A stretch of 64,000 nucleotides of DNA. It comes from Candidatus Parcubacteria bacterium. GTDB lineage: Bacteria > Patescibacteriota > Minisyncoccia > UBA6257 > 2-01-FULL-56-20. The notes below the pieces were generated by a model, which did no database searches, was not told where the DNA came from, and saw only the letters and a list, made by a program, of their open reading frames with translations. The position numbers were made by a program, and so were the translations under genes. How positions within the stretch are numbered: position 1 is the first letter of the stretch; every line of letters begins with the position of its first letter. Shown here in pieces: positions 9,614 to 61,034 of the stretch. The DNA lies in contig DAHVRZ010000001.1 in the NCBI GenBank assembly GCA_027324805.1, positions 66,945-130,944 of the forward strand, in the 5' to 3' direction.

Positions 9614-9659
9614 ACTCTTAATATAAATATATTATATATAAATACTTTTTATTGGAATT

Positions 9660-9750
9660 GTTATTAGTCCTGTGGATTCTGTGGATAAAAATCTTTTTCC
9701 TTCTGTTTGTTAGTTTAAAAAAGATTTCACCATGTGGAAAATGTGGTGAC
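9660..9750. promoter_or_regulatory. DnaA-box cluster in dnaA-dnaN intergenic region
   Basis: TGTGGATTC at 9671 and TGTGGATAA at 9680 (reverse of TTATCCACA). TGTGGAAAA and TGTGGTGAC at 9733-9748. Confidence 0.6.
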
Positions 9751-14289: not shown

Positions 14290-14694
14290 TTATTTTGTGC
14301 TCGATTGCGATGTCGGTTTTACTCCGTCAAGCGTTGGGAGATTCAGACTGACGAGGTTCGGATTGATGACATTCAGGATCATATACGCCCCTGCAAGGAG
14401 AAGGATGCCCATGATGGCAGCCTTGATCCATTCTTTCGCATCGCTCTGGCCCGAGGGGTTCCCCACCGAAGCCATATATTTCACTCCTCCATAGACGATG
14501 ATGCCGAAAGCAAGGATACCGGCGACGGACAATGCATATTGGTAGAAGTTTGCGACAAAGGCGGAGGGAGAAGAGGTGGCGGTCGTGGCGTACTGCCCGG
14601 GGATGGAAGCGGATATATCAATACCATAGGCGACATTCGCCAGGCCGGCGAGCAGTGCCGTGACCGACGCCGTCAATGCCAATTTTTGTTTCAT
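14290..14694 (-). CDS. VirB2/TrbC-like T4SS pilin-family protein (short paralogue)
   Basis: Signal peptide, hydrophobic helix, YGGVKYMASVGNPSGQSDAKEW loop, second hydrophobic helix. The mature N-terminal ~80 aa is identical to the 56686 gene. Confidence 0.65.
   Translation of the reverse strand: MKQKLALTASVTALLAGLANVAYGIDISASIPGQYATTATSSPSAFVANFYQYALSVAGILAFGIIVYGGVKYMASVGNPSGQSDAKEWIKAAIMGILLLAGAYMILNVINPNLVSLNLPTLDGVKPTSQSSTK
14385..14616. repeat. near-identical ~230-bp segment (copy A) shared with 56791-57022 in inverted orientation
   Basis: By-eye alignment of the reverse complement of 14400-14616 against 56791-57030 shows only two mismatches. Identity decays beyond ~14385. Confidence 0.85.
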
Positions 14695-16263: not shown

Positions 16264-18039
16264 TTACAGTGCGCCTTTTTCCTCAAGCAACTGCTCTGGA
16301 TTCGTCGTTATGATCTGATCTTCGAAATACGATGGAACGATTTGGATCGCCACATGGCGTTTGCCGGCGAAGAAGATACCGGTGCCCACCTCTGCGCCAA
16401 GAAGGAAATTCTTTTCCGCATCGGTGAGATCGAATGCCTTTGCCACGATATCAATGGTTGCCGGCGCTTGTTTAAGGAGGAGCTGGATGGACGAGTTCGT
16501 TACGATCGGTCGTCCGTACGGCGAGCGTAGGAAATCCTCCACGTCCTGAGTGATCGTCGTAACGCCCAGATAATATTTGCGTGCACGCTTCACGAGGCCG
16601 AACAGGAACTGCGCGCTGTCGTCGTTCTTCATCATGATCCATGCTTCATCGATGAAGAGGAGGCGCTTGGCGAGTTTTGCGCGGATGATGTTCCAAATAA
16701 AGTTGAGCACGACGAACATCCCTATCGGGCGGAGCTCCTCTTCGAGGTCGCGAATGGAGAATACGATCAAGCGATTGTTCACGTCGATATTCGTCGCCTG
16801 ATTGAGGAACCCGGAGAAGCTACCTTTTGTGTATTTATAGAGCTTTTCCGCGAGTGAGATGCCGCCTTCCAAATTCCGCAATACCGTTTCCAGATCTCCA
16901 AGGAGAGGCGCTTCCTTGCCGGTGAAATCCTCGTCCGGCGTGATCTCGCGCGAAGCGTAGGTCTCGGTGATGGCGCGGTCGAGGATCGCGTCCTCTTCCG
17001 GTGTCACCGTGCCGACCATCAGCTTGATGAGCGATGCAAGCGTGACGATATGCGAGCGGAGAACGTCGGACGGCGTTTCGCCTTCCGGGATGATCGGTAT
17101 GTCGAAAGGATTGATATGCTCATGCGACGAGAGTGAGATATTGAACATGCTTCCGCCGAACGTCTTGGCCAATTTATCGTATTCGTTCTCCGGGTCGATC
17201 ACGAGCACCATATCGACGCCTTCCATGAGCGATCGGATGATCTCAAGCTTTGTCGTATAGGATTTGCCGGAGCCGGACTTGGCGAAGACCACTTGGTTGG
17301 CATTTTCAAGAGAGAATCGGTCGAAGATGACGAGATTTTCATTGTCGAGATTGATACCGTACATGATGCCCTGGTTCGATGAAAGGTCTTCCGAGATAAA
17401 CGGGAAGAACGAGGAGATGGGCGACGTATTCATTGGGCTCCATACCTCGAGCTTGTCCTCCGCGAGCGGAAGGATGGAGGTGAGACCGTCGAGCTGCTGG
17501 AAGAGCGCCGGCTTTATATAGATGAGTTTTGCCTCCATCATTGTGACGAGCTTGCTCTCGAGCCGTGCGAGTTCGTCTTCCGTATCGGCGTAAATAGTGA
17601 TATAGACCCCGACGTTAAACATCTTCTCCTGCGATTGCTGGAGCGAGTCGCGCAGCGACTCGACGTCGTTGATCGCCGTTTCGAGCACTGGATTGCGCAC
17701 AAGCCCCTTTTCCTGCTCCTCGTTCATCTCCGATTCGAGCTGACCCGCTTTTTTGCGGAGGTTCTTCAGTGCAAGCCCCGTATCGATCGGATTCACGAAT
17801 ATTGAAATATCGAAAAGGTTCGGGAGGTTGATTACCGGCTCGAACCAGCCCGTCGAAAGATAGCGCGGATAGGTCAGGATAAAAAATGTTTTTGCGATCT
17901 TGTCCCCGATCTTAAGGAAATTCGGAGATACCTCCGCGCCTGCGGGGGCTATTATCTTCTTTACATCCTGCGCTTGTTGATTTTCTTGGGTATCCTCCGG
18001 CATAGTGGTCCGTTTATTTTTTCTGGAAGGACGAAACAT
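16264..18039 (-). CDS. VirB4/TrbE (CagE)-like type IV secretion ATPase
   Basis: Walker A VVFAKSGSGKSYT, Walker B RLLFIDEAWIMM. The N-terminal region resembles the CagE_TrbE_VirB domain (FFILTYPRYLSTGWF). Confidence 0.8.
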   Translation of the reverse strand: MFRPSRKNKRTTMPEDTQENQQAQDVKKIIAPAGAEVSPNFLKIGDKIAKTFFILTYPRYLSTGWFEPVINLPNLFDISIFVNPIDTGLALKNLRKKAGQLESEMNEEQEKGLVRNPVLETAINDVESLRDSLQQSQEKMFNVGVYITIYADTEDELARLESKLVTMMEAKLIYIKPALFQQLDGLTSILPLAEDKLEVWSPMNTSPISSFFPFISEDLSSNQGIMYGINLDNENLVIFDRFSLENANQVVFAKSGSGKSYTTKLEIIRSLMEGVDMVLVIDPENEYDKLAKTFGGSMFNISLSSHEHINPFDIPIIPEGETPSDVLRSHIVTLASLIKLMVGTVTPEEDAILDRAITETYASREITPDEDFTGKEAPLLGDLETVLRNLEGGISLAEKLYKYTKGSFSGFLNQATNIDVNNRLIVFSIRDLEEELRPIGMFVVLNFIWNIIRAKLAKRLLFIDEAWIMMKNDDSAQFLFGLVKRARKYYLGVTTITQDVEDFLRSPYGRPIVTNSSIQLLLKQAPATIDIVAKAFDLTDAEKNFLLGAEVGTGIFFAGKRHVAIQIVPSYFEDQIITTNPEQLLEEKGAL

Positions 18040-18718
18040 CCTTTCTCTCGATGGTTTGCGGATTGTAGAAATTATAAAGGAGTTCGACGAGCTGTTCGTC
18101 GTTCAATGGCTGCGCCTCGAGCCCCATGTTCTGGATCCCGCTCACTACCTGGGTGGTCCGCTGGCCAAGCTGTTCGGCATGTTCTGCGAATGCCTTCTCC
18201 TCTTCTTCCGACCTCTGCTCGGCTGGTGTATTGGTGCTTTTCACCTTCTTTTCTTTCTTTCCCCCGAAGAACGAGAAGGCACTCGATGCGGATTTTATGT
18301 TTCCGAGGCCGCCCGCGATGGGATAATACGAGATCACCATAAGGAACACTTTTTCCATAATGGCATTTTTCTGCACGAATCCTTTAATGAATTCCACGTA
18401 CTCGTCTATCTGATTACGGAGGATCGGCGATTGCTCTTCTTCCTTTCTTGCGACGAGATTCTGTACGTAATGGTCTATATTCACCTTCCGTGAATGAACG
18501 AGCACCTGGAGCGGAAAATCGATGCCGTTCAGGAAGGTCTGATATGCCTGGATGATGATGTTCTGTTCCGTATCCGATTTGAGCGAAAAATTGACACCCC
18601 CCACCATGACCACCTGGCGAAGACTGCCATCCTTCATAACCACCGTTCCTTGGCGTATTTCTTTGATATCGACAAGATCGAGGGAGTTCCCCGCATCCTG
18701 TTTCGGGGTTGTTGCCAT
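18014..18718 (-). CDS. hypothetical protein, possibly detached N-terminal segment of VirB4
   Basis: Overlaps the start of the ATPase gene by 26 nt in another frame. Combined length (234+591 aa) is about that of canonical VirB4. Confidence 0.5.
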   Translation of the reverse strand: MATTPKQDAGNSLDLVDIKEIRQGTVVMKDGSLRQVVMVGGVNFSLKSDTEQNIIIQAYQTFLNGIDFPLQVLVHSRKVNIDHYVQNLVARKEEEQSPILRNQIDEYVEFIKGFVQKNAIMEKVFLMVISYYPIAGGLGNIKSASSAFSFFGGKKEKKVKSTNTPAEQRSEEEEKAFAEHAEQLGQRTTQVVSGIQNMGLEAQPLNDEQLVELLYNFYNPQTIERKDVSSFQKK

Positions 18719-18768: not shown

Positions 18769-19284
18769 TCAGCGATAGTCCACGCGCCGCGCCGCCTGCC
18801 GGTCACCGCTCACCCGCTGAAAGATCTGATAGTGTTCATTCATGCGTTTTTCTATGAACTCGCGGTCGGATGTTTTACTTGCCGGCTTGGTTCCTGTCTG
18901 GAGGTTCTCCCAGCTCTTATGGAGCGCCATGCCCGCGGCGATCGCTTCGAGGTTGATGCCGGAGGGCGCAGTGGCCGTCTTATGCACCGGAGAGGCCGTA
19001 TGGGGCATTTCCGCCTTCCATACATACGCCTGAGGCTTCCAATAATAGTTCGTGGCGGCCCTCAGTATTTTAATAAGCGGCTGGCCATTTATTTTAATGA
19101 ATGCCAGAGAGCCAGCCGTTCCCATAACGATAACGAATACGATAACAAAAAGCCATGTTTGCACAAAGAAATAGAAAAGCGCCGCGACGAATCCCGCGAT
19201 ACCAATATAAAGGAATTGGCGGAGCGAGAATGGCCCCACCACTTTATCCTCTGTTTCGATGAATTGGGGCACTTGGAACTGCAT
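18769..19284 (-). CDS. VirB3/PrgI-like small membrane protein
   Basis: N-terminal MQFQVPQFIETEDKVVGPFSLRQFLYIGIAG followed by two TM helices. Position immediately upstream of the VirB4-like gene, as in Gram-positive T4SS. Confidence 0.6.
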   Translation of the reverse strand: MQFQVPQFIETEDKVVGPFSLRQFLYIGIAGFVAALFYFFVQTWLFVIVFVIVMGTAGSLAFIKINGQPLIKILRAATNYYWKPQAYVWKAEMPHTASPVHKTATAPSGINLEAIAAGMALHKSWENLQTGTKPASKTSDREFIEKRMNEHYQIFQRVSGDRQAARRVDYR

Positions 19285-19287
19285 GCC

Positions 19288-20412
19288 TTATTCGGTGAAG
19301 TTTTGAACGATAACCTTGGGTGTTGGGGGTTTGGGCGGAGAAGGTGGTGTCGGGGGTGATGGAGGGGGCGTCTGGGGCGGTCGGGGCGTCATGGGCGTCT
19401 GTCCCATGGCCGCGGCCGGTGGCTTCGGCGGCATCGGTGGCTGGGGCATCGCCGGGATTTTTGGCGATTGCAGTGTTGTGGTTATCTCCGTGACACTCCG
19501 ACCCCCTTCTTTCGCAATAGGGACCGAAGGGAGTGATGTAGCGAATCCGGAATAAGCTCCGGCGCGCCAGGACGCCGGGGGCGTTCCGGGGGTCGAAGGC
19601 GTCGGTGCGGGTTTCGCCTGTCCGAATTCTATCATGGCGGGTTTCGCTTTCGGCTGGATCCTCGCACCCTCAAGGTCCATTTGCGCCCCCATTTTCCTTT
19701 CAAGATGAAAATCGGCATTGCGGGCAGGCGCGGCGAAGATTTCACCGCGCTGGATCATCACAGGGGCCGGCGCAGGAGCCGGTGCGGGCGTCGGAGTAAC
19801 CGGACGTCCGGGGATGGGTACGCCACCGATCGTTCGCGGCACAAAAGATGCCGAGGGCGTCGGGACGGGGACCGGCGCCGATGGGAATGGAGCGGGTTTT
19901 TTTATCGCCGACGGGACAGGCGGAAGATCGGCCGACGACATACGCGACCAGCCTTTCGAAGAAAGGTTGGTCAAGGGTATCGGTGTGGAGCCTGAAGTTT
20001 GGGTGTTCGGCGTGGGAACCGGCACGGCGGATTTGGCCGATGCAATATCCTGTATTACTTTCGGGGCGCCCGTATTGCCGGAGGGTGTCGGCGCGGGTGC
20101 GGAGATCGAATTTATGGCCGATTGTAAGGGTTGGAATATTTTTTCATTAAGAGCACTCGCTATGCTTTTCGCAGTAGAAGCGTCCATTCCGGCACCCGAT
20201 ACAAGCTCTTCCGCAAGGTTCTCCTGCGGCAAAAATCCAAGGAGCACCCATCCCGTGCGGGACGCGACTATTTCTTGCGCATCTTCGGGGACTTTGAATT
20301 GCTCGTTTATCGCCGAGATTTTTTCGGCGTTGCTATCGGAAAAAACCGCATCCTGCAGTACTGGCGGGAGTAGGACGAAACGATCCCGAGCTTGTTGTTT
20401 AGTGACGGTCAT
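19288..20412 (-). CDS. proline-rich low-complexity protein
   Basis: PTP/PAP/PPKPP repeats throughout. No TM segment. Confidence 0.5.
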   Translation of the reverse strand: MTVTKQQARDRFVLLPPVLQDAVFSDSNAEKISAINEQFKVPEDAQEIVASRTGWVLLGFLPQENLAEELVSGAGMDASTAKSIASALNEKIFQPLQSAINSISAPAPTPSGNTGAPKVIQDIASAKSAVPVPTPNTQTSGSTPIPLTNLSSKGWSRMSSADLPPVPSAIKKPAPFPSAPVPVPTPSASFVPRTIGGVPIPGRPVTPTPAPAPAPAPVMIQRGEIFAAPARNADFHLERKMGAQMDLEGARIQPKAKPAMIEFGQAKPAPTPSTPGTPPASWRAGAYSGFATSLPSVPIAKEGGRSVTEITTTLQSPKIPAMPQPPMPPKPPAAAMGQTPMTPRPPQTPPPSPPTPPSPPKPPTPKVIVQNFTE

Positions 20413-20417
20413 GACTA

Positions 20418-22973
20418 TTAATCCTCGTCCTCATCTTTTTTATACTTCTTTGGACGAATACCGAACATTTCATTAAGATCCACCGCATCGCGGCCCGGAT
20501 TGTTCTTTATGTAACTGGCAAGGGTCTTATTGGAGCGTGCCAGTGACTGAATTTGTGCGAGGGTTTTTGCATCCATGCTTTGAGGCGCATCCTCGAAGTA
20601 TTTGAGGTTATTTTTTGTACCAAGTGATTTAAGAAGCTCTTTAGCGTTTTGCGGTGAAAGTCCCTCGGCCATTGCGGTTATGATCGATTGTTGCATATTC
20701 TTTACCGCGGCAGGATCGAACGTCAACGGCTTGTTTCTCTTGTCGCCGATCTTTATATCCTTATCAAATTTCGCGGAAGCTTTACTGAAGTCTTGGAACG
20801 AGTCTGCGACCAAGTCCGGATGGTCCTTGATCAACCTCTTTATTTTCCCGATATTTTCGTCGAACGTAAGCTTTGCCGTATCGTACTGGTCTTTCTCGAT
20901 ATTTGTTATGAAGGTATGGCCGGTCGGAGTGTTTTGAATTTCCCTAAGTGTCTTGATCTCGTCCTTTTCGGGATCAGTGAGTGCTCCTTTGCCTTCAAGT
21001 TTATTGAGTTCGTCGAGCCGATTTGAGTAGGCGTCAAACACTCCCTTCTCCGAGGGGCTAAGGGGTGTCCCACTCCCCCATTTTTCGTAAACATCTTTGA
21101 ATTCTTGCGCTTTTGCCTTATCGCCAAATTCCAATACAGTCTTTTCAGCATCTTTATTTTTCTCAGCCAGTTCGTGGATAGTAAGGCCAGACTGATCTTT
21201 GAGTTCCTCGTAAGATTTTTCTTGCTGCAAGTCCTTGAACTTACCCTCATTCTGCTTGAGGAAATCTTGGAAGTTCTGGCCATTCACGGTAAGTCCACCC
21301 AAACTACCGACGCCGGCGGCTTTCACGACGTCTTTACGAAGGTTTTCATCTTTGGAAAGTTTGTCGAGCACGGCCATCTGCTCTTCGTGACTCATAGCAC
21401 CGCGGCCCAACGTTCCGGATTTTTGCGCAAGCGCTCTCGCGAGTGCTGCAGGATCTTTCGCAAGATTTTCGGCATACTTTGCTTGTGCCGCAACCGTGTC
21501 GCCACGCCCCGCACGTTCAAGATTCCCCAACCCTACCCCTGTTGCAACCTGCAGGCGTTGAGGTATGAAGCGATACCCTCCCGATTGCAGTTTGTTCTTA
21601 ACGTCCTTAGGCACCATTCTCCCGGCAGCTTGCTTCGATTTTTTCCCTGCCCACGTTTTTACACCATTCCCTGCGCTTGTTATCGCGCCCGTTACGGCGC
21701 TTGCGCCTTTGATACCCATCGAATTAGCGGCGAAGAGCCCGCCAATGATAAGTCCCGCGAAAATGAGTTCCTGAAGTATGGCGGGAAGCAATTGGGATAA
21801 CGCGCCGGCAAAAAATCCGCTTAGTGCCGTGAATATTCCGCCGTTGTTGTACTGTTTTAGATCCAAACTGCCTACGCCCGTCGTTCCGTTCGATACCTGC
21901 ATAAGGAGCATCGAAAGATAGATGAAGAACAGCGCGATGGGAGCGAAGAATGACCACTGCAGGAACTTGCTCCACCATTTTTTCCAATGATTGCCGAAGA
22001 TCGGGAATACCCATGATGCCCATGCGAACGGCATGAGGATTGCGAGGATGGCTATGTAAATATATCGTATGAAAAGAAGCACAAGGAGCCCCCCGAGGAC
22101 AAGTACGATCAGGAGGAGGTTTGTCGCACCGAAGAGCACGCCCATGAGTGCGACAAGCTCCTTTCCATCATTTGCTCCAGTTGCGGCGAGCGCCCCACTT
22201 AGGCTGTTCAAGCCCTTACTCGAAAGTATATCGGTTTTATTATTGACGCTTCCGCCCGTCACAAATGAGAAGCTGTTCTGCGGCTGGAATGACCCAGCGA
22301 ATGTTGTCGCGAAATTATCCCAACTCTCGAAGCCGTTGAAGCTCTGACTGCATCCTCCGCCTGCCGGGTTGATGCAGTTCACGAAGTAGTGCGAGAACGA
22401 GTTCGACAGGCCGAAGATCGGCGCGGCGATCACAAGGCCGAAGTTGACGAGTACGGCGGCCACCACGAGCTTCCAAAGAAGCTTTTTAACGCCATAACTT
22501 TCGTTACGGATGATAGTCGCTATCGCGATCACGATGATGCCGAGTACGAAGGCGAGATTCGCAATGGAAAGCGCTATGGAAAAGCCGCTTTGTACGAATA
22601 CCGTTTGGAATATGCCATCGTTGATGTTGAGAATGACGCCGATAAGCCATGCTTCAAGCGCCACGATCACGCCCACCACGACCGCCATATCGTATATTGC
22701 AAGGAACGCGAGCGTGGTCACGAACCCTGACGTTACGTCGCCGAGCGCGCCGATGCCGGATGCGACCAAGCTTTTCGCCTTTTGGATAATGCCCGTGCCG
22801 CCGGATTGTGAGCCGCTACCGCCGGCGTTCCCAGACTGGCTGCCGCTTGTTTGGGTTTGTGCGTACACCGAGTGGGGAAGTACAGCGGCGACGGTGAATA
22901 GGACCGCGATGACGAGGCAAATGGAGGATACCACCCTCACCCATCCTTTTTTCCTGAAACCGTGAAGCGTCAT
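20418..22973 (-). CDS. VirB6/TrbL-like polytopic membrane protein with long C-terminal soluble domain
   Basis: Signal peptide, Gly/Ser-rich linker, ~8 TM helices, then a ~370-aa charged coiled-coil-like C-terminus. Confidence 0.6.
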   Translation of the reverse strand: MTLHGFRKKGWVRVVSSICLVIAVLFTVAAVLPHSVYAQTQTSGSQSGNAGGSGSQSGGTGIIQKAKSLVASGIGALGDVTSGFVTTLAFLAIYDMAVVVGVIVALEAWLIGVILNINDGIFQTVFVQSGFSIALSIANLAFVLGIIVIAIATIIRNESYGVKKLLWKLVVAAVLVNFGLVIAAPIFGLSNSFSHYFVNCINPAGGGCSQSFNGFESWDNFATTFAGSFQPQNSFSFVTGGSVNNKTDILSSKGLNSLSGALAATGANDGKELVALMGVLFGATNLLLIVLVLGGLLVLLFIRYIYIAILAILMPFAWASWVFPIFGNHWKKWWSKFLQWSFFAPIALFFIYLSMLLMQVSNGTTGVGSLDLKQYNNGGIFTALSGFFAGALSQLLPAILQELIFAGLIIGGLFAANSMGIKGASAVTGAITSAGNGVKTWAGKKSKQAAGRMVPKDVKNKLQSGGYRFIPQRLQVATGVGLGNLERAGRGDTVAAQAKYAENLAKDPAALARALAQKSGTLGRGAMSHEEQMAVLDKLSKDENLRKDVVKAAGVGSLGGLTVNGQNFQDFLKQNEGKFKDLQQEKSYEELKDQSGLTIHELAEKNKDAEKTVLEFGDKAKAQEFKDVYEKWGSGTPLSPSEKGVFDAYSNRLDELNKLEGKGALTDPEKDEIKTLREIQNTPTGHTFITNIEKDQYDTAKLTFDENIGKIKRLIKDHPDLVADSFQDFSKASAKFDKDIKIGDKRNKPLTFDPAAVKNMQQSIITAMAEGLSPQNAKELLKSLGTKNNLKYFEDAPQSMDAKTLAQIQSLARSNKTLASYIKNNPGRDAVDLNEMFGIRPKKYKKDEDED

Positions 22974-22975
22974 TG

Positions 22976-25216
22976 TTATTGCACGTCAACCTGGCAGGTT
23001 GCGGTGGTTTGGTCGGTGGATGCGGTGACAGTGACATAGTAGGTACCGGTTGCGGTATAGGTGGCGAAATATGAATCGCCGACACTCGGTGTACCGCTTG
23101 CGGCCTGCATCGATCCCGGCGCGGACCAGGTGTAGGTTGGCGTACCATCGCTGTTCGTTCCTGACGGGCAGCTGTTGTTCGCCGAGCAGGTTGTATCGAT
23201 CGCGCCTCCTGCCGCTGAGAAGCTTGCGATCGCCTGACTCGTAGATGCGTTGAAAATAGTCGATTGCTGTGCCGGGAGGCATTGGATGACAGTGGACGAG
23301 GTCGGCTGGGAAAGGGAAAGACTCGAAGATGATATACTACTCAGCCCATAAGCCCCGGACGGGACCGTCGAATTGTTGCCGTTCGTTATGTTGCTCAGTT
23401 CCTGCGTGGAAAGGTTTATCGCATTAGTGGCGAGCGTATTAAGGATGGAGCTGAGGAGCGCCTCCAGAATCCCTGTGATATTCTTCGCATTCGTGATATT
23501 GTCCAATCCGCCCTTGAGTACCGAGGTGAACGATTCCTTGGTGACATCGCTCGGGGATTTTATCTGCGGACTCGAACCGTCGGCGCATTTGCCGAGATTG
23601 GGGTTTGCGATCGCCTGTTCGGGGATCAGGTCGGGGCCCATATTACATGTCGGCGGGTTGGTGCTCGTGTCGAGTGTTCCCCCGTCGGGGCATGTGTATC
23701 CGACGCCATATGGGTTGCTATGGTCGCTACATGTGGCGACGCCCTTCCACCCGGTCGATGTATTCTGCGTGGTCTTCGCCTGTTGGCTGTTACTTCCCGC
23801 GATAAGCGCGGCATCGCGCGTCTGAATGGCGAGTGCCCACACGTTGCCGCCTGGCTGGAAGAGGGAGAGATAGTCGTTGAAGTTATTGAAGTTGTTGTAA
23901 AAATTCTGGAGATTATTACCGAGCTGTCCGTTGAATTCGGATTGGCAGATGTCGGCATTCGCCACGGACGGAGTCGAAAGCAGAGCCTGTACGAATGGGG
24001 CCTGATATGAAGGTACACATTTCATATATGTGCCTATTTCGGTTACCGCGGCGCTTGTGAAAGAGTTGACCATTTCCGAACCGAAGTCGGTGATGAACTG
24101 CGGCGCACCCGCGCCCTGGATCGCGGTGAGTACTTTTTGCTGGATGAGGTTGGTGAGCACGTTGATGAGAATCTGGAGGGCTATATCCTCGACATATTTT
24201 TCGATGGTTTTTCCGAGTTGGGCGGTCGTATTGAATTCCACGACAGGGTCGGTAACTGCGAGTTGTGCGTGCGCGACCGGTATCCCTACGAAATTATTTA
24301 TAAAGGCGAATACTCCCTGGTTATGGTTCGGAACGGGAAGCAATGATGTTTGGAAGGGATATTTTGCGGTCATCTTGCTCCATTCGCTTTCGAAATTGCC
24401 GACCGCGAGATCATACTTCGATTGTTCGTTCTGGAAGATGATAGATGCTTTCAAGGGATCATTTTGTGCGTTTCCAAGAAGCGCCACCATGTTTTTCTCG
24501 TACACCAGGAGCTTAATGAGGCTTTCTTGTGCGTTCATCAAGGAAGCGGGCGTGGGGATCGCTGCGGCTGTTTGCAGCATCTCTTGAATCTGCGCTTCGA
24601 CCGCTGCCGCGGAACTCGGATCTTCCTGGCCGAGAACCCCTCCTATGCTGCTGTTTGCAATGTATTTTTGATAGATGGCATTGAACGACGATTCATAATT
24701 ATTGATGTTTGCAGGAGTATCGCTTGTAGTAACGATTTTTACCTGCGCCACTTGCGCGTCCCAATTGGGTGCTTGGAAATTTTGGAATACAGGATCTGCG
24801 GCGAGCGACTGGGCGATCGCTTGGGTGTTCGGCGAATTGAATATAGTGCCGCCGCTACTGTCGGTGATGGCGCCCTGGGGGTTCGCTGCCGTAAAGCCGT
24901 TAATGAACGATTCCGCGAAGGTGTTGGTAAGGTTGGTGGGATCGTTCGCGGCGACGATGGTTGCCGATGGAACATTCATTTCGCTGAGAATCTCAGCTGC
25001 GTTCCCTTGGAGCGAACCGGTATCTACGAATGCATTGTTGCCGAACACCGGGACCGTTCCCGTTGCGTCGCCTCCTATCCCCGTGATCGTCGGGCCTTCC
25101 GCCACTGACGGAGCGCCCGTCGGATTGGCTCCGACATACGCAAGGATCAGTCCGGAAAAGACCGCTGCGACCGCGAGAACCAGAAATCCGGAGATCAACT
25201 TCTTGACATCGATCAT
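22976..25216 (-). CDS. large secreted surface protein (first gene of operon), Cys-containing C-terminal beta domain
   Basis: N-terminal TM/signal. 746 aa, Asn/Gln/Thr-rich. The C-terminus YTWSAPGS...TYYVTVTAS looks Ig/PKD-like. Confidence 0.55.
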   Translation of the reverse strand: MIDVKKLISGFLVLAVAAVFSGLILAYVGANPTGAPSVAEGPTITGIGGDATGTVPVFGNNAFVDTGSLQGNAAEILSEMNVPSATIVAANDPTNLTNTFAESFINGFTAANPQGAITDSSGGTIFNSPNTQAIAQSLAADPVFQNFQAPNWDAQVAQVKIVTTSDTPANINNYESSFNAIYQKYIANSSIGGVLGQEDPSSAAAVEAQIQEMLQTAAAIPTPASLMNAQESLIKLLVYEKNMVALLGNAQNDPLKASIIFQNEQSKYDLAVGNFESEWSKMTAKYPFQTSLLPVPNHNQGVFAFINNFVGIPVAHAQLAVTDPVVEFNTTAQLGKTIEKYVEDIALQILINVLTNLIQQKVLTAIQGAGAPQFITDFGSEMVNSFTSAAVTEIGTYMKCVPSYQAPFVQALLSTPSVANADICQSEFNGQLGNNLQNFYNNFNNFNDYLSLFQPGGNVWALAIQTRDAALIAGSNSQQAKTTQNTSTGWKGVATCSDHSNPYGVGYTCPDGGTLDTSTNPPTCNMGPDLIPEQAIANPNLGKCADGSSPQIKSPSDVTKESFTSVLKGGLDNITNAKNITGILEALLSSILNTLATNAINLSTQELSNITNGNNSTVPSGAYGLSSISSSSLSLSQPTSSTVIQCLPAQQSTIFNASTSQAIASFSAAGGAIDTTCSANNSCPSGTNSDGTPTYTWSAPGSMQAASGTPSVGDSYFATYTATGTYYVTVTASTDQTTATCQVDVQ

Positions 25217-25291: not shown

Positions 25292-26083
25292 TCAGAAGAG
25301 TGCTTCCGCGATGCGGGATATCTGTTCCACGGAAAGGTTCTGGGGCCTTTGGGTTGGAAGTATGCCATCACCCAAAAGGCTTATTTTCGCCGTCGATGCT
25401 TCTTTGGACATGCCGCCTTTTTCCAACTCCGCGGCAATATTGTTTCCTAATGTCTTGCGTGGCTGGGAAAATATGGCGCGAACCGCCCGATAATATTTCC
25501 CCTCCTTATCCATTACGCCCCGGTTTTTTCTTTTAAGCAAGATGACCGCCGACTCCACCTCCGGTGGAGGCGAAAAATCGCTGCGAGGGACGGTGGTGAC
25601 GATTTCTGGGTCGGACCAGAATTGAACGCTCGCCGCTAGGCGGTTCATACGCGGCGGCCGGGCGCATATTCTTTCCGCAACTTCGCGCTGTATCATGAAT
25701 ACGCACCGCTCCGGCTTTTGGGATGCTTCGCTTATGATGCGCAGCAGATGACCGGTGATGTAATAAGGAAGGTTGCCGGTGAGCTTTATAGGCCCCCTCT
25801 CTGTACGTGACAGTATTTCACCGATGACTTCGAGCGCATCCCCTGGCGTGACATCCGCTACACCCTCCAATTTTCCGGCAAGGCTCGTTGCGAGGCGATC
25901 GTCTTTTTCAATGACCGATAGCGCCGCGCCCGCGGCGGTGCATGCGTCGAGCAGTGGAAAGGTGAGCTCGCCGTGTCCCGGCCCGATCTCAATAATCCGA
26001 TCGTTGCGGGAGACTTCGATCGTATCAACGATGCGTTTCACGATACGCTCGTTTTTTAAAAAATGCTGTCCAAGTCTTCTCAT
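25292..26083 (-). CDS. rsmA: 16S rRNA (adenine1518/1519-N6)-dimethyltransferase
   Basis: MRRLGQHFLKNERIVKRIVD...IIEIGPGHGELT is the KsgA signature. Confidence 0.92.
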   Translation of the reverse strand: MRRLGQHFLKNERIVKRIVDTIEVSRNDRIIEIGPGHGELTFPLLDACTAAGAALSVIEKDDRLATSLAGKLEGVADVTPGDALEVIGEILSRTERGPIKLTGNLPYYITGHLLRIISEASQKPERCVFMIQREVAERICARPPRMNRLAASVQFWSDPEIVTTVPRSDFSPPPEVESAVILLKRKNRGVMDKEGKYYRAVRAIFSQPRKTLGNNIAAELEKGGMSKEASTAKISLLGDGILPTQRPQNLSVEQISRIAEALF

Positions 26084-54845: not shown

Positions 54846-56156
54846 ATGCCCACCAAACTTACCCAGCGTCAGATCATAATCATCGCCATCGTTGCGCTTG
54901 TTGTGATCGCCGGCCTTGCGATTTTCATTCTCAATCTTCGTTCAAGCACCAGCGGCTATTCGGCGCAGAACCTCACGATCTGGGGAACCGACGATCCGAA
55001 GGCGTTCAATGATATGATCGCAAAATATACGGGTCCTGGCTCCGGCACGCAGACGAGCATCAAATATACGCAGATCAGTGCCGCGAACTATCAAAACCAA
55101 GTACTCAGCGCGATTGCTGCGGGCAACGGGCCCGATGTTTTTGAAATAGGCAATCGCGACCTCCCGCAGTGGAAGAACGTGCTGTTGCCCGTCCCAACCA
55201 ACTTCGCATCGACTTTCAATCTTACGACCCTCGGCCAGGATTTTCCCGATGTGGTTTCCCGTGACTTCGTCTCGGGCGGATATATCTATGCACTTCCGCT
55301 TTCCGTGGACACGCTTGCGATGATCTACAACAAAGACCTTTTGAATACGGCAGGCATTGCGACGCTGCCAAAAACATGGAGCCAGTTCGACGGTGATATT
55401 CCACTCTTGCGGCAGGAGAATTCCGCCGGACAGATCACACAAGCCGCTGCGGCGCTCGGCGGTTCGGCAGCGAGTATCGGAAATGCATCCGATATTGTAT
55501 TTCTTATGATGCTTCAGAATGGTACGCAAATGCTTTCGAGCGACGGTTCGTCGGTAGCCTTCGCTTCCACGGGAGGAACGTCCGCGGCGGCAGGACAGAA
55601 CGCATTCGATTTCTATCTTCAATTCTCAAGCGCCTCGTCGCCTTACTATACCTGGAATGACAGTATGGGTAATGCTCTCGATGCCTTCGCTCAAGGTAAG
55701 GTCGCTATCATTTTTGATTATTCGTCAGCGCTCGCTTCCATCAAGGCAAAATCGCCGTTCCTCAATTATGGAGTGGCGGCCATGCCGCAGGCCGACAATG
55801 CGACGGCGGCGGTGAATTATGCGAAGTATAACGGGCTCGCGGTGAATAAGAACAGCGCGAATGCCCTCGCGGCATGGCAATTTGTCATCGGCTTGACCAC
55901 AAATGCCACCGATGAGAACATTTATACATCGGACACCGGCGCCCCTCCCGCGCTCCGGAGCGTGATAGCCGCCGACATGACCGATCCCGTGATGTCCGTG
56001 TTTGCATCGCAGGCCCTTACGGCGAAATCGTGGTATGAGTCGAACAGCGCGAAGATCAGCGATGCCGTTGATACCGCCATTACACAAGTACTCGACGGTT
56101 CCGCCGATTCGACGACGGCGCTCAGTGAGGCACAGTCCCAGATCAACGGAGGCTGA
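54846..56156 (+). CDS. ABC-transporter-type extracellular solute-binding protein (family 1-like), orphan
   Basis: N-terminal TM/signal, then ~410 aa matching the sugar-type SBP size and pattern. No permease or ATPase nearby. Confidence 0.6.
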   Translation: MPTKLTQRQIIIIAIVALVVIAGLAIFILNLRSSTSGYSAQNLTIWGTDDPKAFNDMIAKYTGPGSGTQTSIKYTQISAANYQNQVLSAIAAGNGPDVFEIGNRDLPQWKNVLLPVPTNFASTFNLTTLGQDFPDVVSRDFVSGGYIYALPLSVDTLAMIYNKDLLNTAGIATLPKTWSQFDGDIPLLRQENSAGQITQAAAALGGSAASIGNASDIVFLMMLQNGTQMLSSDGSSVAFASTGGTSAAAGQNAFDFYLQFSSASSPYYTWNDSMGNALDAFAQGKVAIIFDYSSALASIKAKSPFLNYGVAAMPQADNATAAVNYAKYNGLAVNKNSANALAAWQFVIGLTTNATDENIYTSDTGAPPALRSVIAADMTDPVMSVFASQALTAKSWYESNSAKISDAVDTAITQVLDGSADSTTALSEAQSQINGG

Positions 56157-56160: not shown

Positions 56161-56673
56161 ATGTCCATTATTCCCCCCATGAATCGTTTCCTCAACAATC
56201 TTCGCATCAAGGCCGCTTCCCGTTTTACATTCTTCCTGCTTTCTGCCGCGGTGGCGGTTGCCATTCCCTTTGTGGCATCGGCAACGGTGACCGCGCCGGA
56301 CATCTGGGCGATGCCCCCGGGGTATTGGGGTCCCATCGTATCGTGTACGGGGAATTATCCCATCGGCACCGGCACCACGTTGCCGGCGGGAGCGCTCCCG
56401 AATTGCACGAACCTGGACGATCTTCTTCAGACGGTCGTTAACACAATCTACCTTATAATGTCGGCGGGACTTTTCGTTATTGCCCCGATACTTTTCATCA
56501 TCGGCGGTATTATGATGATCATCTCGAGCGGTAATCCCGAAAAGATCGGCACGGCGCGGAAGACAATGATCGGTGCGGTTGTCGGCGTCGTTATCGTGCT
56601 TTGCTCCTATCTCATCGTGAATACTATAATTTCAGTGTTCCATATCACCGGGGTCGCAGGATTCGGTTCTTGA
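56161..56673 (+). CDS. VirB2/TrbC-like T4SS pilin-family protein
   Basis: RBS GGAGG. Signal/TM segment. Core motif ...FIIGGIMMIISSGNPEKIGTARKTMIGAVVGVVIVL (hydrophobic helix - G[ND]PEK - basic - hydrophobic helix). Confidence 0.65.
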   Translation: MSIIPPMNRFLNNLRIKAASRFTFFLLSAAVAVAIPFVASATVTAPDIWAMPPGYWGPIVSCTGNYPIGTGTTLPAGALPNCTNLDDLLQTVVNTIYLIMSAGLFVIAPILFIIGGIMMIISSGNPEKIGTARKTMIGAVVGVVIVLCSYLIVNTIISVFHITGVAGFGS

Positions 56674-56685: not shown

Positions 56686-57594
56686 ATGAAGAATACTTTT
56701 GCAATCATCTCGCTTTCATTATTCCTCGGTGCGACGGGGATTGCCGTGCTTTCGTTCTTTATGCCGGTACCGCTTCATGCGCAAGTGCAGATATCCGCTT
56801 CCATCCCCGGGCAGTACGCCACGACCGCCACCTCTTCTCCCTCCGCCTTTGTCGCAAACTTCTACCAATATGCATTGTCCGTCGCCGGTATCCTTGCTTT
56901 CGGCATCATCGTCTATGGAGGGGTGAAATATATGGCTTCGGTGGGGAACCCCTCGGGCCAGAGCGATGCGAAAGAATGGATCAAGGCTGCCATTATGGGC
57001 ATCCTTCTCCTTGCAGGATCCTATATGATCCTCTATATCATCAATCCCGGACTTGTGAACCTTTCACTGCCCAACAGTCTTGAATCGGTGGGTCAACAGG
57101 CGTCGCAGACGGGATTTGCGGGGAGTTCGGGGACGCCGACGGGAAAGTGCACACCTCCGACGAATGGGCCGTGTACGGCAGCATCGCTCAGCCAGTACAG
57201 CTGTCTTGGAAATTCAACGCTTGCCGGCGGTGTATGTAACGTCGAGAGCAGTGGCAACGCCGCGGCGGGAGGCGACCTTTCCACGAACCCCGGCCCCAAT
57301 GGGCGGAACCTTCCCGCATCGGTCGGACTCTTCCAGATCAATCTTTCCGCGAATACCATTCCCGCCAACTGCAAACCCGGTTCGTCAGGATGCCTTAATT
57401 GCCCTGCGGCGTTCACCAATCCCTACACCGGCTCCAATCCGCATACCTCCATCAAAGATATGAATCTCTATAAACAATGCGTTGCGGCGGCCGAGACTGT
57501 CTCCACCAACGTCCAGGAAGCCTGTCAGCTTTCCAAGAACGGCACGAACTGGAGTCTTTGGGGTCCCGCCACAAGAAAAGCGTGCGGTATATAA
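56686..57594 (+). CDS. pilin-like N-terminal domain fused to C-terminal lytic-transglycosylase (SLT-like) Cys-rich domain
   Basis: N-terminal 110 aa are paralogous (mature part identical) to the gene at 14290-14694. The C-terminus has E-S...GLFQI (NVESSGNAAAGG...ASVGLFQINLS), reminiscent of the SLT catalytic motif, and 10 Cys. Confidence 0.6.
   Translation: MKNTFAIISLSLFLGATGIAVLSFFMPVPLHAQVQISASIPGQYATTATSSPSAFVANFYQYALSVAGILAFGIIVYGGVKYMASVGNPSGQSDAKEWIKAAIMGILLLAGSYMILYIINPGLVNLSLPNSLESVGQQASQTGFAGSSGTPTGKCTPPTNGPCTAASLSQYSCLGNSTLAGGVCNVESSGNAAAGGDLSTNPGPNGRNLPASVGLFQINLSANTIPANCKPGSSGCLNCPAAFTNPYTGSNPHTSIKDMNLYKQCVAAAETVSTNVQEACQLSKNGTNWSLWGPATRKACGI
56791..57022. repeat. copy B of the ~230-bp near-identical pilin-gene segment
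   Basis: See copy A. Encodes ISASIPGQYATT...AIMGILLLAG in both genes. Confidence 0.85.
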
Positions 57595-57604: not shown

Positions 57605-58159
57605 ATGAAAAAAGCGCTTATCATAGTACTCGTCATCATCGTGATCGCTGCCGCCGCGGCCGGTGTTGTTTTCTTTATGAGGCAGCAGGGAAGCCCTTCC
57701 GGCAGTTCGGGGACCGGCACTATTCCCTTTGGTACGACCACGCCTACCGGGGCCTATTCATCTTCAACCGGAACCGGCAATGTGGTAACTTCTTCGGCGC
57801 CGGGGAGTGGGAGCAGTACCATCACTATCGGGACGAGCCGCGGCACTGTCACCCTGAACAATTTCTATAGCACCGCTGCGTATACCACCCAGGACGGCCA
57901 GACTGTGGTCCTCCAGGATCAGGCGGATTATCAGATCGTCTATAACGTTTCCGACAGCAGTTTTATTATTTCCATACTTGCGACGCCGCTCGAAGCGAAC
58001 CGCGAGGCGGCTGAGGCTGCATTCCTTGCCCAACTCGGGATATCCCAGGCTGACGCCTGTAAGCTTAAAGTGAGTGAAGGCGTGCCGATCGGTGTTTCCG
58101 ACCAATATCCCGGCGTGAATTTCCCGCTGAGTTTCTGCGGGAATTCCACACCCATGTAG
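57605..58159 (+). CDS. membrane-anchored secreted hypothetical protein
   Basis: N-terminal TM segment, Ser/Gly/Thr linker, then a beta-rich domain. Confidence 0.55.
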   Translation: MKKALIIVLVIIVIAAAAAGVVFFMRQQGSPSGSSGTGTIPFGTTTPTGAYSSSTGTGNVVTSSAPGSGSSTITIGTSRGTVTLNNFYSTAAYTTQDGQTVVLQDQADYQIVYNVSDSSFIISILATPLEANREAAEAAFLAQLGISQADACKLKVSEGVPIGVSDQYPGVNFPLSFCGNSTPM

Positions 58160-58185: not shown

Positions 58186-58584
58186 ATGAAACGCGCTTAT
58201 CGAATGGTCGCCGGAGCTGGAGCGGCATTCGGTTCTTTCCTGGTGCTTGCGGCAACGGCAATGGCTTCGACATTAACCGGTGGAAGTTCTTCGGGCGGTT
58301 CCGGATCGTCGGGGGGGAGCGTTTCCCTCATTAACCCACTCAATACCACAAGCTTTCCGACAGTGGTTAATAATGTCATCGCTTTCCTTTCCACAGATGT
58401 CGCAATCCCGCTTACGGTGATAATGGTCCTTATTGGTGCATTCCAGATGATGACCTCGAGCGGAGAGCCGGAGAAATTCGGCAAAGCGAGGAAGACGCTT
58501 ACGTACGCCGCCATAGGACTTGCGGTGGCGCTTATTGCAACCGGCATCACATCCATCATCCAGAGCGTCCTGAATGGTTCGTAG
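58186..58584 (+). CDS. VirB2/TrbC-like T4SS pilin-family protein
   Basis: Signal peptide. Core motif ...VIMVLIGAFQMMTSSGEPEKFGKARKTLTYAAIGLAVALIATG. Confidence 0.65.
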   Translation: MKRAYRMVAGAGAAFGSFLVLAATAMASTLTGGSSSGGSGSSGGSVSLINPLNTTSFPTVVNNVIAFLSTDVAIPLTVIMVLIGAFQMMTSSGEPEKFGKARKTLTYAAIGLAVALIATGITSIIQSVLNGS

Positions 58585-58661
58585 CGGCCGTGGCGGGATG
58601 GACAATTCCCCAAAAGCGTGCGACGATTATTCCAACAAACGGTCGAAAAATCACCCTTACT

Positions 58662-59102
58662 ATGATTAAGAAATTCATCGATCGGGTCCCGGGGATATTG
58701 CTCACCGTAATGCTAGCCGTTTCGGGCGGATTGTTCGCCGTGTACAGTCTCAATGTCGCGGATGCACAATCGTCGCCGGTCTACGACAAGGCAAGCCTTA
58801 TGGCGTTTCTTTGCAATATCATCTCCTGGATGATCATGATTTTGTTCGCGGTTGCGATTATCATGATCGTCATGGCAGCGTTCCAGTACGTTACCGCCGG
58901 AGATGACACTGAAAAAACCTCGAAAGCAAGGAGAACGCTCACTTATTCGGCAATCGGTATCGCGGTGGCCCTCATTGCATACGGATTCCCTGCCATCGTA
59001 TCGAGCGTGATCCCCGGAAGTCCCTCAGTGAGTGCGTTCAATTGCTCGGTTTCGACCGGCAGCAGTTCCGGCGGAAGCAGCTCGGGTCTTGTCTCCACGT
59101 GA
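58662..59102 (+). CDS. VirB2/TrbC-like T4SS pilin-family protein
   Basis: Core motif ...AVAIIMIVMAAFQYVTAGDDTEKTSKARRTLTYSAIGIAVALIAYG. The ORF-track start at 58590 is probably too long. Confidence 0.6.
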   Translation: MIKKFIDRVPGILLTVMLAVSGGLFAVYSLNVADAQSSPVYDKASLMAFLCNIISWMIMILFAVAIIMIVMAAFQYVTAGDDTEKTSKARRTLTYSAIGIAVALIAYGFPAIVSSVIPGSPSVSAFNCSVSTGSSSGGSSSGLVST

Positions 59103-59172: not shown

Positions 59173-59568
59173 ATGAACAAAGTAATCAACTTTGCGAAGA
59201 AGATCGGTCCGACGGCGATATCGTTCGTGGTTCCGGCGCTCGCGTTCGCGCAGGGCATTCAGGCTCCGGCGCCCGGCGTTGGTGCGGGCAACGTCCCTAC
59301 GGCCAACATCACGAGCCTTCAGTCGATCCTGAACGACCTCTGTATCGTGTTTGCGTGGGCGTTCTACTTCCTTATCGTCGTTGCCATCATCTTCGTTATC
59401 GTCGCGGCATTCAAGTACCTTACTGCCGGTGGTGAACCCGAGAAGGTGAAGAGCGCGGGTGCAACCCTCCTTTATGCTGCGGTTGCGATCGGTGTTGCGC
59501 TTCTCGCGAAAGCCATTCCGCTCGTTGTCGGCAACTTCCTCGGTGCCGGAACGGTCACGTCCTGCTAG
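59173..59568 (+). CDS. VirB2/TrbC-like T4SS pilin-family protein
   Basis: Signal peptide MNKVINFAKKIGPTAISFVVPALAFAQG. Core motif ...VIVAAFKYLTAGGEPEKVKSAGATLLYAAVAIGVALLA. Confidence 0.65.
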   Translation: MNKVINFAKKIGPTAISFVVPALAFAQGIQAPAPGVGAGNVPTANITSLQSILNDLCIVFAWAFYFLIVVAIIFVIVAAFKYLTAGGEPEKVKSAGATLLYAAVAIGVALLAKAIPLVVGNFLGAGTVTSC

Positions 59569-61034
59569 GAGCAGACCGATCGTTTGGTATGAGATCCCAA
59601 TATCCCGCAGTAATGCGGGATTTTGGTTTGTTTATAAAATCGGAAACCATCCCTATATAAAAAATTCCCCGACGGCGCATGATGCGAACCGTCGGGGGTC
59701 GAATCTTTCTTTGATCCAATAAGGATATCAGAAAGTGTAAATGTTCCCGACATCTCGTCTCTCCAGTAGTAATAGAGGACGAACTTGTCGATTTGCTGCG
59801 AGGAGCCGGCACTTTCGTCAATGAACCTTGCCGTGAAGTTCACACTGGTTCCTGACGGTATGGTACCGTGCCAGTTCGTTCCGAAGCTCATGCCTCCATG
59901 CATCACGGGCGTTGCGTAACCATTGTAGTACGCCATGCCGTGTTCCTGCAGGCTGAGAACTCCGTCGCGCGCGCTGTTGTTGGTGATCGTACCGTTCACT
60001 TCGATCACCGTACCCGTCGCGCGCGAGGCGCACGCCGAGATGGTGAGTTGTCCGCTCGTACTCGACGTACAGTCGCGCCCGATCGGTGCGGGTGTGCTCG
60101 GTACCGGCGCTTGTGGGGCGTTCGATTGCGATGATCCGCTTTCTCCCGAACCCTGCGAGCTTTGGCCAGTGTCACCGCTACCGTTGTTTCCGTTACCTCC
60201 TGTTTCCGTGCCGCCGCCGCCATCCAATTGTTTCACGGATAACTTAGCGGGACCTGGTTTTGAGATATGGACCTTCGGTTGTTCTTCACTGTTGGCTCTT
60301 GCCGCGGCGAGGAGGTTATGAAAACGGAAGCCGCCTGCATAACATGCGAAGATGAACATCGTTGCAGCGGCCCAGACGGGAAATTTTTTAAGTTTCCTTC
60401 TGGTTCCCCGCGTCTTTATCCATCCCGCTTTCGTTGCCTTATAGACTTTTTTCGTCATCTGCCAGATGAAGAGGGGGGCGGCGATCAGGCAGATTCCGCC
60501 TATGCGCTTGCCGATGCGCCCCATCCGAATCCCGGCGGAGGCGCAAGCGTGTGCTGCAGCGGCGATGCCTTTCTTCGCTTTCGAGGCCGTGCTTCCAATG
60601 ACTCCCCATACTCTGCCAAACCATGACCTTTTCGGTTTGGGCGCGGCTTCCTTGCGGAAATCGCGATCCCAATCCTTTACGGGTAACGGCAGTATGACGG
60701 GGATGGCGCGCGCTTTCTGTTTTGATTGCTGCGACGAGTGGTGCTGTGCCGCTACTTTTATGCGGTTATTCCACTCCGCCATGCGCCCGTCGGGGAAAAC
60801 GATGAATGAGACTTTTCCCTTTTTGACGTAGATCTTGGATGGCACATCCGCGCCTTCCTTGATCCGGATCGTTGCGGCTACGACATATTCGTTCCTGTCG
60901 TCGCCGGCTTGGGCCTTCACGAAATCCTCAACTTCCTTCCGGGAGGTTGGGGAAGACGGGAGGTTTGCATCGGCATCCTTCTCATAACGGTTCATTGCTT
61001 CTCCTCTCTTGTTCGCGATGATATCTTTCCCCAT
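59565..61034 (-). CDS. hypothetical membrane protein with Gly/Ser-rich linker and C-terminal beta domain
   Basis: 489-aa ORF with internal TM segments (ICLIAAPLFIW, AATMFIFACYAGG) and a GGGGTETGGNGNNGSG linker. Confidence 0.5.
   Translation of the reverse strand: MGKDIIANKRGEAMNRYEKDADANLPSSPTSRKEVEDFVKAQAGDDRNEYVVAATIRIKEGADVPSKIYVKKGKVSFIVFPDGRMAEWNNRIKVAAQHHSSQQSKQKARAIPVILPLPVKDWDRDFRKEAAPKPKRSWFGRVWGVIGSTASKAKKGIAAAAHACASAGIRMGRIGKRIGGICLIAAPLFIWQMTKKVYKATKAGWIKTRGTRRKLKKFPVWAAATMFIFACYAGGFRFHNLLAAARANSEEQPKVHISKPGPAKLSVKQLDGGGGTETGGNGNNGSGDTGQSSQGSGESGSSQSNAPQAPVPSTPAPIGRDCTSSTSGQLTISACASRATGTVIEVNGTITNNSARDGVLSLQEHGMAYYNGYATPVMHGGMSFGTNWHGTIPSGTSVNFTARFIDESAGSSQQIDKFVLYYYWRDEMSGTFTLSDILIGSKKDSTPDGSHHAPSGNFLYRDGFRFYKQTKIPHYCGILGSHTKRSVCS

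Follow-up and report, generated by a model that had tools for sequence, protein, structure and literature searches.

The stretch analysed here is a 64-kb window (64,000 nucleotides, and "the window" throughout) of contig DAHVRZ010000001.1 from a Candidatus Parcubacteria bacterium. The gene in question encodes a protein in which a VirB2-like pilin of a type IV secretion system (T4SS) is continuous with a cysteine-rich, lysozyme-like domain, and it is the second gene of a tightly packed pilin array (Table 1). From N- to C-terminus, the product consists of a signal peptide, a two-helix VirB2-like pilin module, a disordered linker and a lysozyme-like domain with ten cysteines. An initial annotation, made from the sequence alone, had described a pilin-like N-terminal module fused to a 190-residue domain with 10 cysteines. 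The pilin module and the ten cysteines were both recovered by the present analysis, and the C-terminal domain is likewise present but shorter than stated, about 150 residues (153-302), with residues 130-152 forming the linker.

Table 1. Features of the fusion gene, its pilin array and the T4SS operon (positions are those of the window).
Feature	Position	Strand	Remarks
Fusion gene	56686..57594	+	ATG start, 302 aa plus stop codon; T4SS_pilin and SLT_3 domains
Sec-type signal peptide, residues 1-33	56686..56784	+	hydrophobic helix 4-25 (AlphaFold2); conserved A-x-Q motif before the mature N-terminus
Repeat arm, pilin-core DNA	56791..57047	+	other arm 14360-14616; inverted pair, 257 nt, 97%
VirB2-like pilin core, residues 51-124	56836..57057	+	two hydrophobic helices with short loop GNPSGQSDAKE between them
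Gly/Ser/Thr/Pro linker, residues 130-152	57073..57141	+	after conserved NLxLP motif; disordered; length differs among homologues
Cys-rich lysozyme-like domain (SLT_3 type), residues 153-302	57142..57591	+	AlphaFold2, SLT_3, Foldseek, hhalign
Glu187-Ser188, putative catalytic Glu	57244..57249	+	Glu187 codon 57244-57246; C-terminal end of helix 177-188 (DSSP)
GLFQIN motif, residues 214-219	57325..57342	+	counterparts are GLMQ (SLT enzymes) and GILQIN (C-type lysozyme)
SBP gene	54846-56156		heads the array region; array adjoins gyrA and the SBP gene
First array pilin, divergent core	56161..56673	+	PF18895, 33.7 bits; position conserved in other genomes; start inferred as first ATG after upstream stop
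184-aa membrane-anchored protein	57605..58159	+	membrane helix at the N-terminus, then a stretch rich in Ser, Thr and Gly, then about 100 aa of folded domain type without family assignment
Divergent T4SS_pilin gene	58186-58584	+	PF18895, 36.1 bits (HMM search)
Divergent T4SS_pilin gene	58590-59102	+	PF18895, 34.1 bits (HMM search)
Divergent T4SS_pilin gene	59173-59568	+	PF18895, 30.4 bits (HMM search)
PrgI / VirB3-like component	18769..19284	-	Pfam PrgI, 45.3 bits
VirB4-like ATPase	16264..18718	-	two overlapping open reading frames, 18014-18718 and 16264-18039; P-loop_TraG 92.5 bits, DUF87, AAA_10, TraC_F_IV
Stand-alone 134-aa operon pilin	14290..14694	-	two genes after virB4; HMM search of six-frame translation, BLASTP

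The Pfam family T4SS_pilin (PF18895) matched residues 51-117 of the fusion protein with 32.6 bits (cut-off 26.6). In a full-length AlphaFold2 model, built with an alignment of 48 sequences, helices 52-84 and 89-119 formed a helical hairpin with a predicted local distance difference test score (pLDDT) of 83-93, and the model had the layout expected of a pilin of this type, in which a signal peptide precedes a pair of hydrophobic helices with a short polar loop between them. Residues 26-47 were disordered, linker residues 131-152 had a pLDDT below 50, and a compact C-terminal domain started at about residue 155 with a pLDDT above 90. The signal peptide is probably cleaved after ..PLHAQ; homologues show ..FAQ followed by TQITI at this point. 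The membrane topology deduced from a cleaved signal peptide and two membrane helices would place the C-terminal domain outside the cell. All ten cysteines (155, 163, 173, 184, 229, 236, 239, 265, 280 and 300) lie after residue 154, and eight of them are invariant in 48 full-length homologues. In 151 diverse relatives, C163 and C184 were both present in 89 proteins, both absent in 61 and present singly in only 1, and the corresponding counts for C173 and C280 were 122, 24 and 5. This paired covariation agrees with an extracytoplasmic location of the domain.

A lysozyme-like catalytic signature of the SLT type had been read by the initial annotation in the peptide NVESSGNAAAGGDLSTNPGPNGRNLPASVGLFQINLS, which corresponds to residues 185-221. 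The two elements of this signature were located at Glu187-Ser188 and GLFQIN, and their conservation was counted in the best 150 cluster representatives, with pairwise identities of at most 50%. Glu187, Gly214 and Gln217 were present in 150/150 of these relatives, Asn219 in 149/150 and Ser188 in 145/150, and the putative catalytic Glu on which the earlier claim hinged is thus conserved without exception in this set. In the model, beta strands follow the helix end that carries Glu187-Ser188, as in the layout of the lysozyme fold. Two features of glycoside hydrolase family 23 (GH23) and SLT enzymes were therefore found, Glu-Ser at a helix end and, within the usual distance of 15-30 residues downstream, a G-L-x-Q motif; the third motif of these enzymes, AYNxG, was absent, and Tyr262 within L-Y-x-Q-C was conserved (Tyr in 142/150).

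With respect to family membership, Pfam SLT_3 (PF18896, 'Lysozyme like domain') matched residues 183-292 with 23.7 bits in the full-length protein, and it matched 30 of 30 homologous domains at E <= 1 (best E 4.6e-11). The classical SLT family PF01464 matched 4 of the 30 domains (best E 1.4e-3) and gave no match for the window protein in the Pfam scan, and no PF00062 (GH22, C-type lysozyme) match was obtained. When a 45-sequence alignment of the domain was compared with small family alignments using hhalign, Glu187 was placed on the catalytic Glu of Slt70 in the comparison with four E. coli SLT domains (P = 2.9e-4, probability 40%, 33 columns) and on Glu35 in the comparison with two C-type lysozymes (P = 5.5e-4, probability 30%, 30 columns); single-sequence comparisons with hen egg-white lysozyme (HEWL) and Slt70 gave 7-9 motif columns. 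In the C-type alignment, the position of Asp52 was occupied by the invariant Ser212, so that the second carboxylate is missing.

A Foldseek search with the full-length model returned only a weak match to a pilin (Aeropyrum pernix conjugation pilus 8dfu, E 7.5, template modelling (TM) score 0.64 on the target). Because this search gave little, the C-terminal domain was modelled alone (pLDDT 94, predicted TM score 0.87). Against the PDB, the top three matches of the domain model had E-values of 3.6-5.9. The first two chains (TM 0.41-0.49) come from a DARPin complex, where the label is lysozyme partner, and from a lamprey receptor complex, where it is protein antigen; from their lengths of 127 and 125 residues we take both to be HEWL; the third is a GH124 cellulase, a family with a lysozyme-like fold. 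In the viral BFVD database, the top match was a Rhodococcus phage 'entry lysozyme' (E 0.21, probability 0.90), at least eight further matches among the top 20 were labelled lysozyme, SLT or LT_GEWL, and a lytic transglycosylase and a phi29 morphogenesis protein were also listed. The fold comparison was thus weak in score, with matches that were nearly all to lysozymes or lytic transglycosylases.

The disulfide pattern of the domain differs from the known cysteine pairs of HEWL. A whole-length likeness by eye had pointed to a bacterial C-type lysozyme, and this assignment was unsupported beyond the motif region, with Ser at the position of Asp52. In our reading, the domain is probably a divergent lysozyme-like superfamily member that relies on one catalytic Glu and stands mechanistically closer to GH23 than to GH22. 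It is a demonstrable member of neither family, and as an enzyme it is a putative lytic transglycosylase or muramidase.

The pilin part of the fusion is closely related to one other protein in the window, the stand-alone pilin of the T4SS operon. The operon lies 38 kb off on the opposite strand near dnaA, dnaN and ksgA, and its stand-alone pilin gene is 42 kb from the fusion gene. Residues 34-129 of the fusion and the operon pilin were 92% identical (88/96, BLASTP). The inverted pair of pilin-core DNA listed in Table 1 was the only repeat of 60 nt or longer in the 64 kb, and the DNA alignment showed that identity collapses on both sides of the tract, on the one side within the signal peptide and on the other beyond the second helix. 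The nucleotide identity between the core of the operon pilin and that of the cargo-bearing pilin of the array was 0.92 in the window, 0.92 in clean384, 0.96 in BP7.bin39, 0.73 in MFD04540 and 0.69 in WH2.bin17, and the identity of cores between genomes had a mean of 0.67 and a maximum of 0.80. Homogenisation was accordingly seen in two of the four other genomes, and in the three homogenised genomes, the window among them, tracts 209-259 nt long contained no more than 5 mismatches. Because paralogues are closer to each other than orthologues, synonymous sites are identical and the tract edges are sharp, the comparison indicates recurrent gene conversion that is limited to the mature pilin core. 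Selection for this would be explained most simply if the cargo-bearing subunit must fit into the assembly formed by the operon pilin, and the fusion probably co-assembles with that pilin.

The arrangement proved to be anything but singular. A search of about 5.8 billion proteins gave 135 homologues (E-values from 8e-114 down, the identical entry P0001 excepted), of which about 50 were full-length and 41-66% identical, and the named sources were Paceibacterota, Parcubacteria and Minisyncoccia (candidate phyla radiation, CPR/Patescibacteria). In a profile search of 1.84 billion cluster representatives, the C-terminal domain was found in 1083 proteins at E <= 1e-3 and in 649 at E <= 1e-10. A pilin module upstream of the domain was the commonest context (99 of the 150 best representatives), and the fusion is therefore shared by related genomes. 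Another 23 of the 150 are proteins of 844-1193 aa that end in the domain and contain no pilin or other Pfam domain (P0132, P0140, P0144 and P0196 among them). A tblastn search of the domain against plasmids gave no match. The initial annotation had treated the architecture as without a characterised counterpart, and it is in fact widespread and already catalogued, with both PF18895 and PF18896 in the precomputed Pfam annotation of many homologues. No description of the fusion was found in full-text literature searches or in papers on Patescibacteria and T4SSs, and as far as we could find the fusion is undescribed. To our knowledge, no enzyme-bearing pilin of the conjugative type has been described.

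Downstream of the fusion gene lie the gene for a 184-residue membrane-anchored protein, for which no Pfam family was found, and three more divergent pilin genes. The 184-residue gene followed the cargo pilin directly on its 3' side, whatever the cargo, in L001, L002, L005, L007, L008, L012, L014 and L016 (phmmer). A function as lysozyme inhibitor or immunity protein was considered and rejected, because the gene also follows cargo pilins that lack SLT_3. The operon 38 kb away has the order PrgI/VirB3-like gene, virB4, two genes of no known family, the stand-alone pilin gene and a gene for a 412-aa protein. Both types of locus, the array and the operon, are conserved in nine other genomes. An HMM search of the six-frame translation found no second SLT_3-type domain in the window.

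The cargo at this array position differs between genomes. In L012 (5893-6747), L014 (5914-6762) and L016 (5878-6750), SLT_3 is replaced by another Cys-rich domain of about 150 residues with the invariant motif E..PP...H....H..GC..D...EY...N.HI. Its HxxGxAxD...H pattern resembles that of LAS/M15 zinc peptidases at the level of the motif, and no Pfam match was found for this alternative cargo. Among pilins with the same core, sub-threshold matches in the tail were obtained to VanY in P0063 (E 9e-4) and to CHAP in P0097 (E 2.4e-3) and P0057 (E 1.1e-2). A relationship of the cargo of L012, L014 and L016 to the VanY-like tail of P0063 was tried with hhalign and nothing was found. P0047 carries PKD followed by SLT_3 (hmmscan), P0049 has precomputed PKD matches and a C-terminal SLT_3-type domain (profile search), and in P0056, 46 residues match the end of Glyco_hydro_15. 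Single-linkage clustering of the pilin tails was spoiled by their low-complexity linkers. The domain assignments suggest that the pilins of this family form a modular cargo system.

The best explanation of these observations, to which we give a probability of about 55%, is that the fusion is a VirB2-like subunit that enters the T4SS assembly together with the operon pilin and carries a single-Glu enzyme that opens peptidoglycan locally, possibly also in the wall of a host. According to this explanation, the Sec signal peptide would be removed and the VirB2-like hairpin inserted in the membrane with both ends outside, and a flexible linker of about 25-35 residues would keep the lysozyme-like domain, with its disulfide bonds, at the external side of the membrane. 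Since the hairpin is nearly identical to the operon pilin, one would expect the same T4SS to handle both, with the fusion assembled alongside the operon pilin as a minority subunit that bears cargo. The cargo would then use Glu187 to cleave the glycan strands of peptidoglycan, much as GH23 lytic transglycosylases or goose-type lysozymes do, at the place where the T4SS structure crosses the wall, which may be the cell's own wall (the job of VirB1), that of an attached cell, or both. The domain make-up, the invariant motif, the covarying cysteines, the spread of the family, the conservation of the loci and the homogenised DNA of the pilin core are observations, whereas the membrane topology, the joint assembly with the operon pilin, the enzymatic activity and the choice of target wall are deductions. 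Delivery of a wall-cutting activity on the pilus subunit itself, which the initial annotation had raised, gains plausibility from the near-identity of the pilin core to that of the virB4-operon pilin. The name 'VirB2-VirB1 fusion' used there holds as a functional analogy. The protein would be like VirB1 in function and is not a VirB1 orthologue, given that it lacks a PF01464 match, scores just below the SLT_3 cut-off, is fused to a pilin and is encoded in an array beside gyrA and the SBP gene, 38 kb from virB4.

Several observations weigh against this explanation. The fusion gene lies outside the T4SS operon, 38 kb from virB4, and no recent homogenisation was seen in two of the five genomes (0.69 and 0.73). 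The lysozyme-like activity of the cargo is putative throughout the family. The SLT_3 score of the domain alone was 26.2 bits, and this and the full-length score are both just under the Pfam cut-off of 27; the hhalign alignments covered 30-33 columns around the motif with probabilities of 30-40%; all fold matches had E-values above 0.2 and TM scores of 0.41-0.49; and neither the protein nor two profiles of the domain retrieved anything relevant in sequence searches of the PDB. A cargo of 150 residues on every subunit may be sterically impossible, in which case incorporation could only be partial. Among the cultivated relatives in this class, at least one lives as a parasite on archaea, which have no peptidoglycan, and attack on the host wall is therefore not a general role. 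Finally, no pilus has been seen for any Patescibacteria T4SS (PMC12857230).

The distance from virB4 and the absence of an observed pilus in the group are also what would be expected of a membrane-anchored autolysin, in which the hairpin is an anchor only and the enzyme remodels the cell's own wall, in growth, in division or for the insertion of machines in general, without ever entering a filament. PrgK and TraG, hydrolases of Gram-positive T4SSs, are anchored by N-terminal helices in a comparable way (PMC12102498), and the same domain ends proteins of 850-1190 aa that have no pilin module. A mere anchor, however, needs no 257 nt of 97% DNA identity with sharp edges that recurs in other genomes, and the fusion gene is always found inside a pilin array. 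We therefore regard an anchored autolysin as rather unlikely, although it is the alternative that survives best.

The conserved NLxLP motif and the disordered linker bear on a second alternative, namely that the fusion is a precursor that is cut near NLxLP or in the linker to release an ordinary mature pilin identical to that of the operon and a free enzyme, either VirB1*-like or a bacteriolytic toxin. NLxLP is conserved in cargo-bearing and stand-alone pilins, and processing of both kinds is known, given that the P-type pilin TrbC of RP4 loses a C-terminal peptide on maturation and VirB1 is processed to the secreted VirB1*. No protease or cleavage site was identified, however, and cargo-free subunits are already supplied by the operon pilin, so that a further source seems dispensable. 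On these grounds we judge a cleaved precursor to be improbable, more so than the anchored autolysin.

That the domain binds glycan without cleaving it, as an adhesin for peptidoglycan or for a glycan on the host surface, seems very unlikely to us. Adhesive-looking PKD domains and small Cys-rich knots do occur on other pilins of the family, and T4SS pilins have been discussed as candidates for host adhesion in Patescibacteria (PMC10936435). Against this stand the conservation of Glu187 and GLFQIN (Glu187, Gly214 and Gln217 in 150/150), as would be expected if an active site is maintained, and the companion cargos, which resemble hydrolases (CHAP, VanY). A sequencing or assembly artefact or a repeat-induced chimera of two genes, conceivable because the pilin core is a repeat and repeats can cause chimeric joins in metagenome assemblies, is effectively refuted by 48 full-length homologues (41-66% identity) of the same continuous architecture from many independent assemblies, by the pilin module in 99/150 representatives and by the conserved flanking synteny.

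The explanation as a cargo-bearing pilin subunit can be set beside several known systems. VirB1-type enzymes (Agrobacterium VirB1, R1 P19 and RP4 TrbN; GH23, PF01464) have in common with the present domain Glu-Ser at a helix end followed by G-L-x-Q, and the presumed task of opening peptidoglycan for a T4SS. They differ in that the domain described here is covalently attached to a pilin, contains many cysteines (five disulfides are predicted), belongs to the SLT_3 type and is encoded in an array 38 kb from virB4. PrgK of pCF10 and TraG of pIP501, which contain SLT and CHAP domains with or without LytM, share the monoderm MPF_FATA-type context and the N-terminal membrane tether. These two proteins combine lysozyme-like, CHAP and peptidase activities in one protein (PMC12102498), and the enzyme types found on the related pilins match their repertoire, but here there is one activity per protein, and a VirB2-like pilin, homogenised in its core with that of the operon, serves as the tether.

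Compared with the conjugative pilins VirB2, TrbC and TraA and those of Patescibacteria (PF04956, PF18895), the fusion has the same signal peptide, two hydrophobic helices and tandem array, and differs in the 150-residue folded, enzyme-like domain at its C-terminus. The VirB2-like arrays of Patescibacteria T4SSs are tandem arrays of 2-11 divergent genes (PMC12102498). Published arrays have a mean identity of about 25% and a maximum of 54%, whereas here the core of one member is near-identical to the operon pilin. In the modular type IV pilins PilB and PilC of Streptococcus sanguinis, a grafted module is co-polymerised with the major pilin and displayed on the filament; the concept of grafting is the same, but the pilin superfamily is unrelated and the modules are adhesive rather than peptidoglycan-lytic. 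Flagellar FlgJ, phage T4 gp5 and phi29 gp13 are structural subunits of machines that have to cross peptidoglycan, and each carries a lysozyme-type domain of its own. They embody the same concept of local wall opening on different scaffolds and in different machines, and none is a pilin.

The different cargos raise the broader possibility of an armed pilus (a T4SS-associated filament or conduit) that drills through the cell's own wall or that of a host, in which one pilin scaffold would carry interchangeable wall-degrading enzymes (lysozyme-, CHAP- and M15/VanY-like) and gene conversion would keep the subunits compatible. We put this forward tentatively, as conceivable but on present evidence doubtful. 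The homogenised pilin core and the swappable, hydrolase-like cargo are the new observations of the analysis. If true, the armed pilus would explain the missing separate VirB1 in most of the phylum. In a survey that searched for VirB2 with PF18895 and for VirB1 with other profiles, most VirB2-bearing Patescibacteria genomes had no recognisable VirB1, and pilus biogenesis was concluded to be apparently independent of VirB1 (PMC12102498). The armed pilus would also provide a concrete mechanism by which the T4SS reaches the host. The Patescibacteria T4SS has been found essential in the single species tested, and its role has been described as completely unknown (PMC11665869). Southlakia epibionticum cannot do without its pilin array (PMC10633639; PMC12857230). 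Gram-positive T4SSs are normally without a VirB2 pilin (PMC12857230). VirB2-like pilins are anomalous for a Gram-positive-type system, and the fusion would offer wall opening that is built into the pilin subunit. Pilins as carriers for exchangeable enzymes may be a general principle.

Some further features of the two loci were noted. A terminator-like hairpin of 8 pairs followed by a T-run lies at 59602-59621 on the forward strand. Its distance from the end of the last pilin gene is 34 nt, and transcription of the array could stop there; promoter and terminator scans of the window gave counts that were not above chance. The VirB4-like ATPase is split over different frames into an N-terminal part of about 230 aa and a P-loop part of about 590-615 aa. 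The same split was present in L009 (1958-4385), L013 (1757-4302) and L015 (1461-4441), and its recurrence in three other genomes marks it as a conserved feature, whether two genes or programmed frameshifting, rather than a sequencing error. Three genes directly upstream of the PrgI gene (20418-25216 and 19288-20412, reverse strand) have no family assignment. By eye, much of the N-terminal half of the 851-aa product looks hydrophobic, and this protein might be VirB6/PrgH-like. The 746-aa product, also by eye, starts with a hydrophobic segment that may direct secretion, and the third is a Pro-rich protein of 374 aa. The T4SS operon is flanked by dnaN, dnaA and ksgA (RrnaAD) at 8501-11090 and 25292-26083 (both on the reverse strand) and therefore adjoins the likely replication origin, a location that has been reported for the T4SS operon of Paceibacteria-type genomes (PMC12102498).

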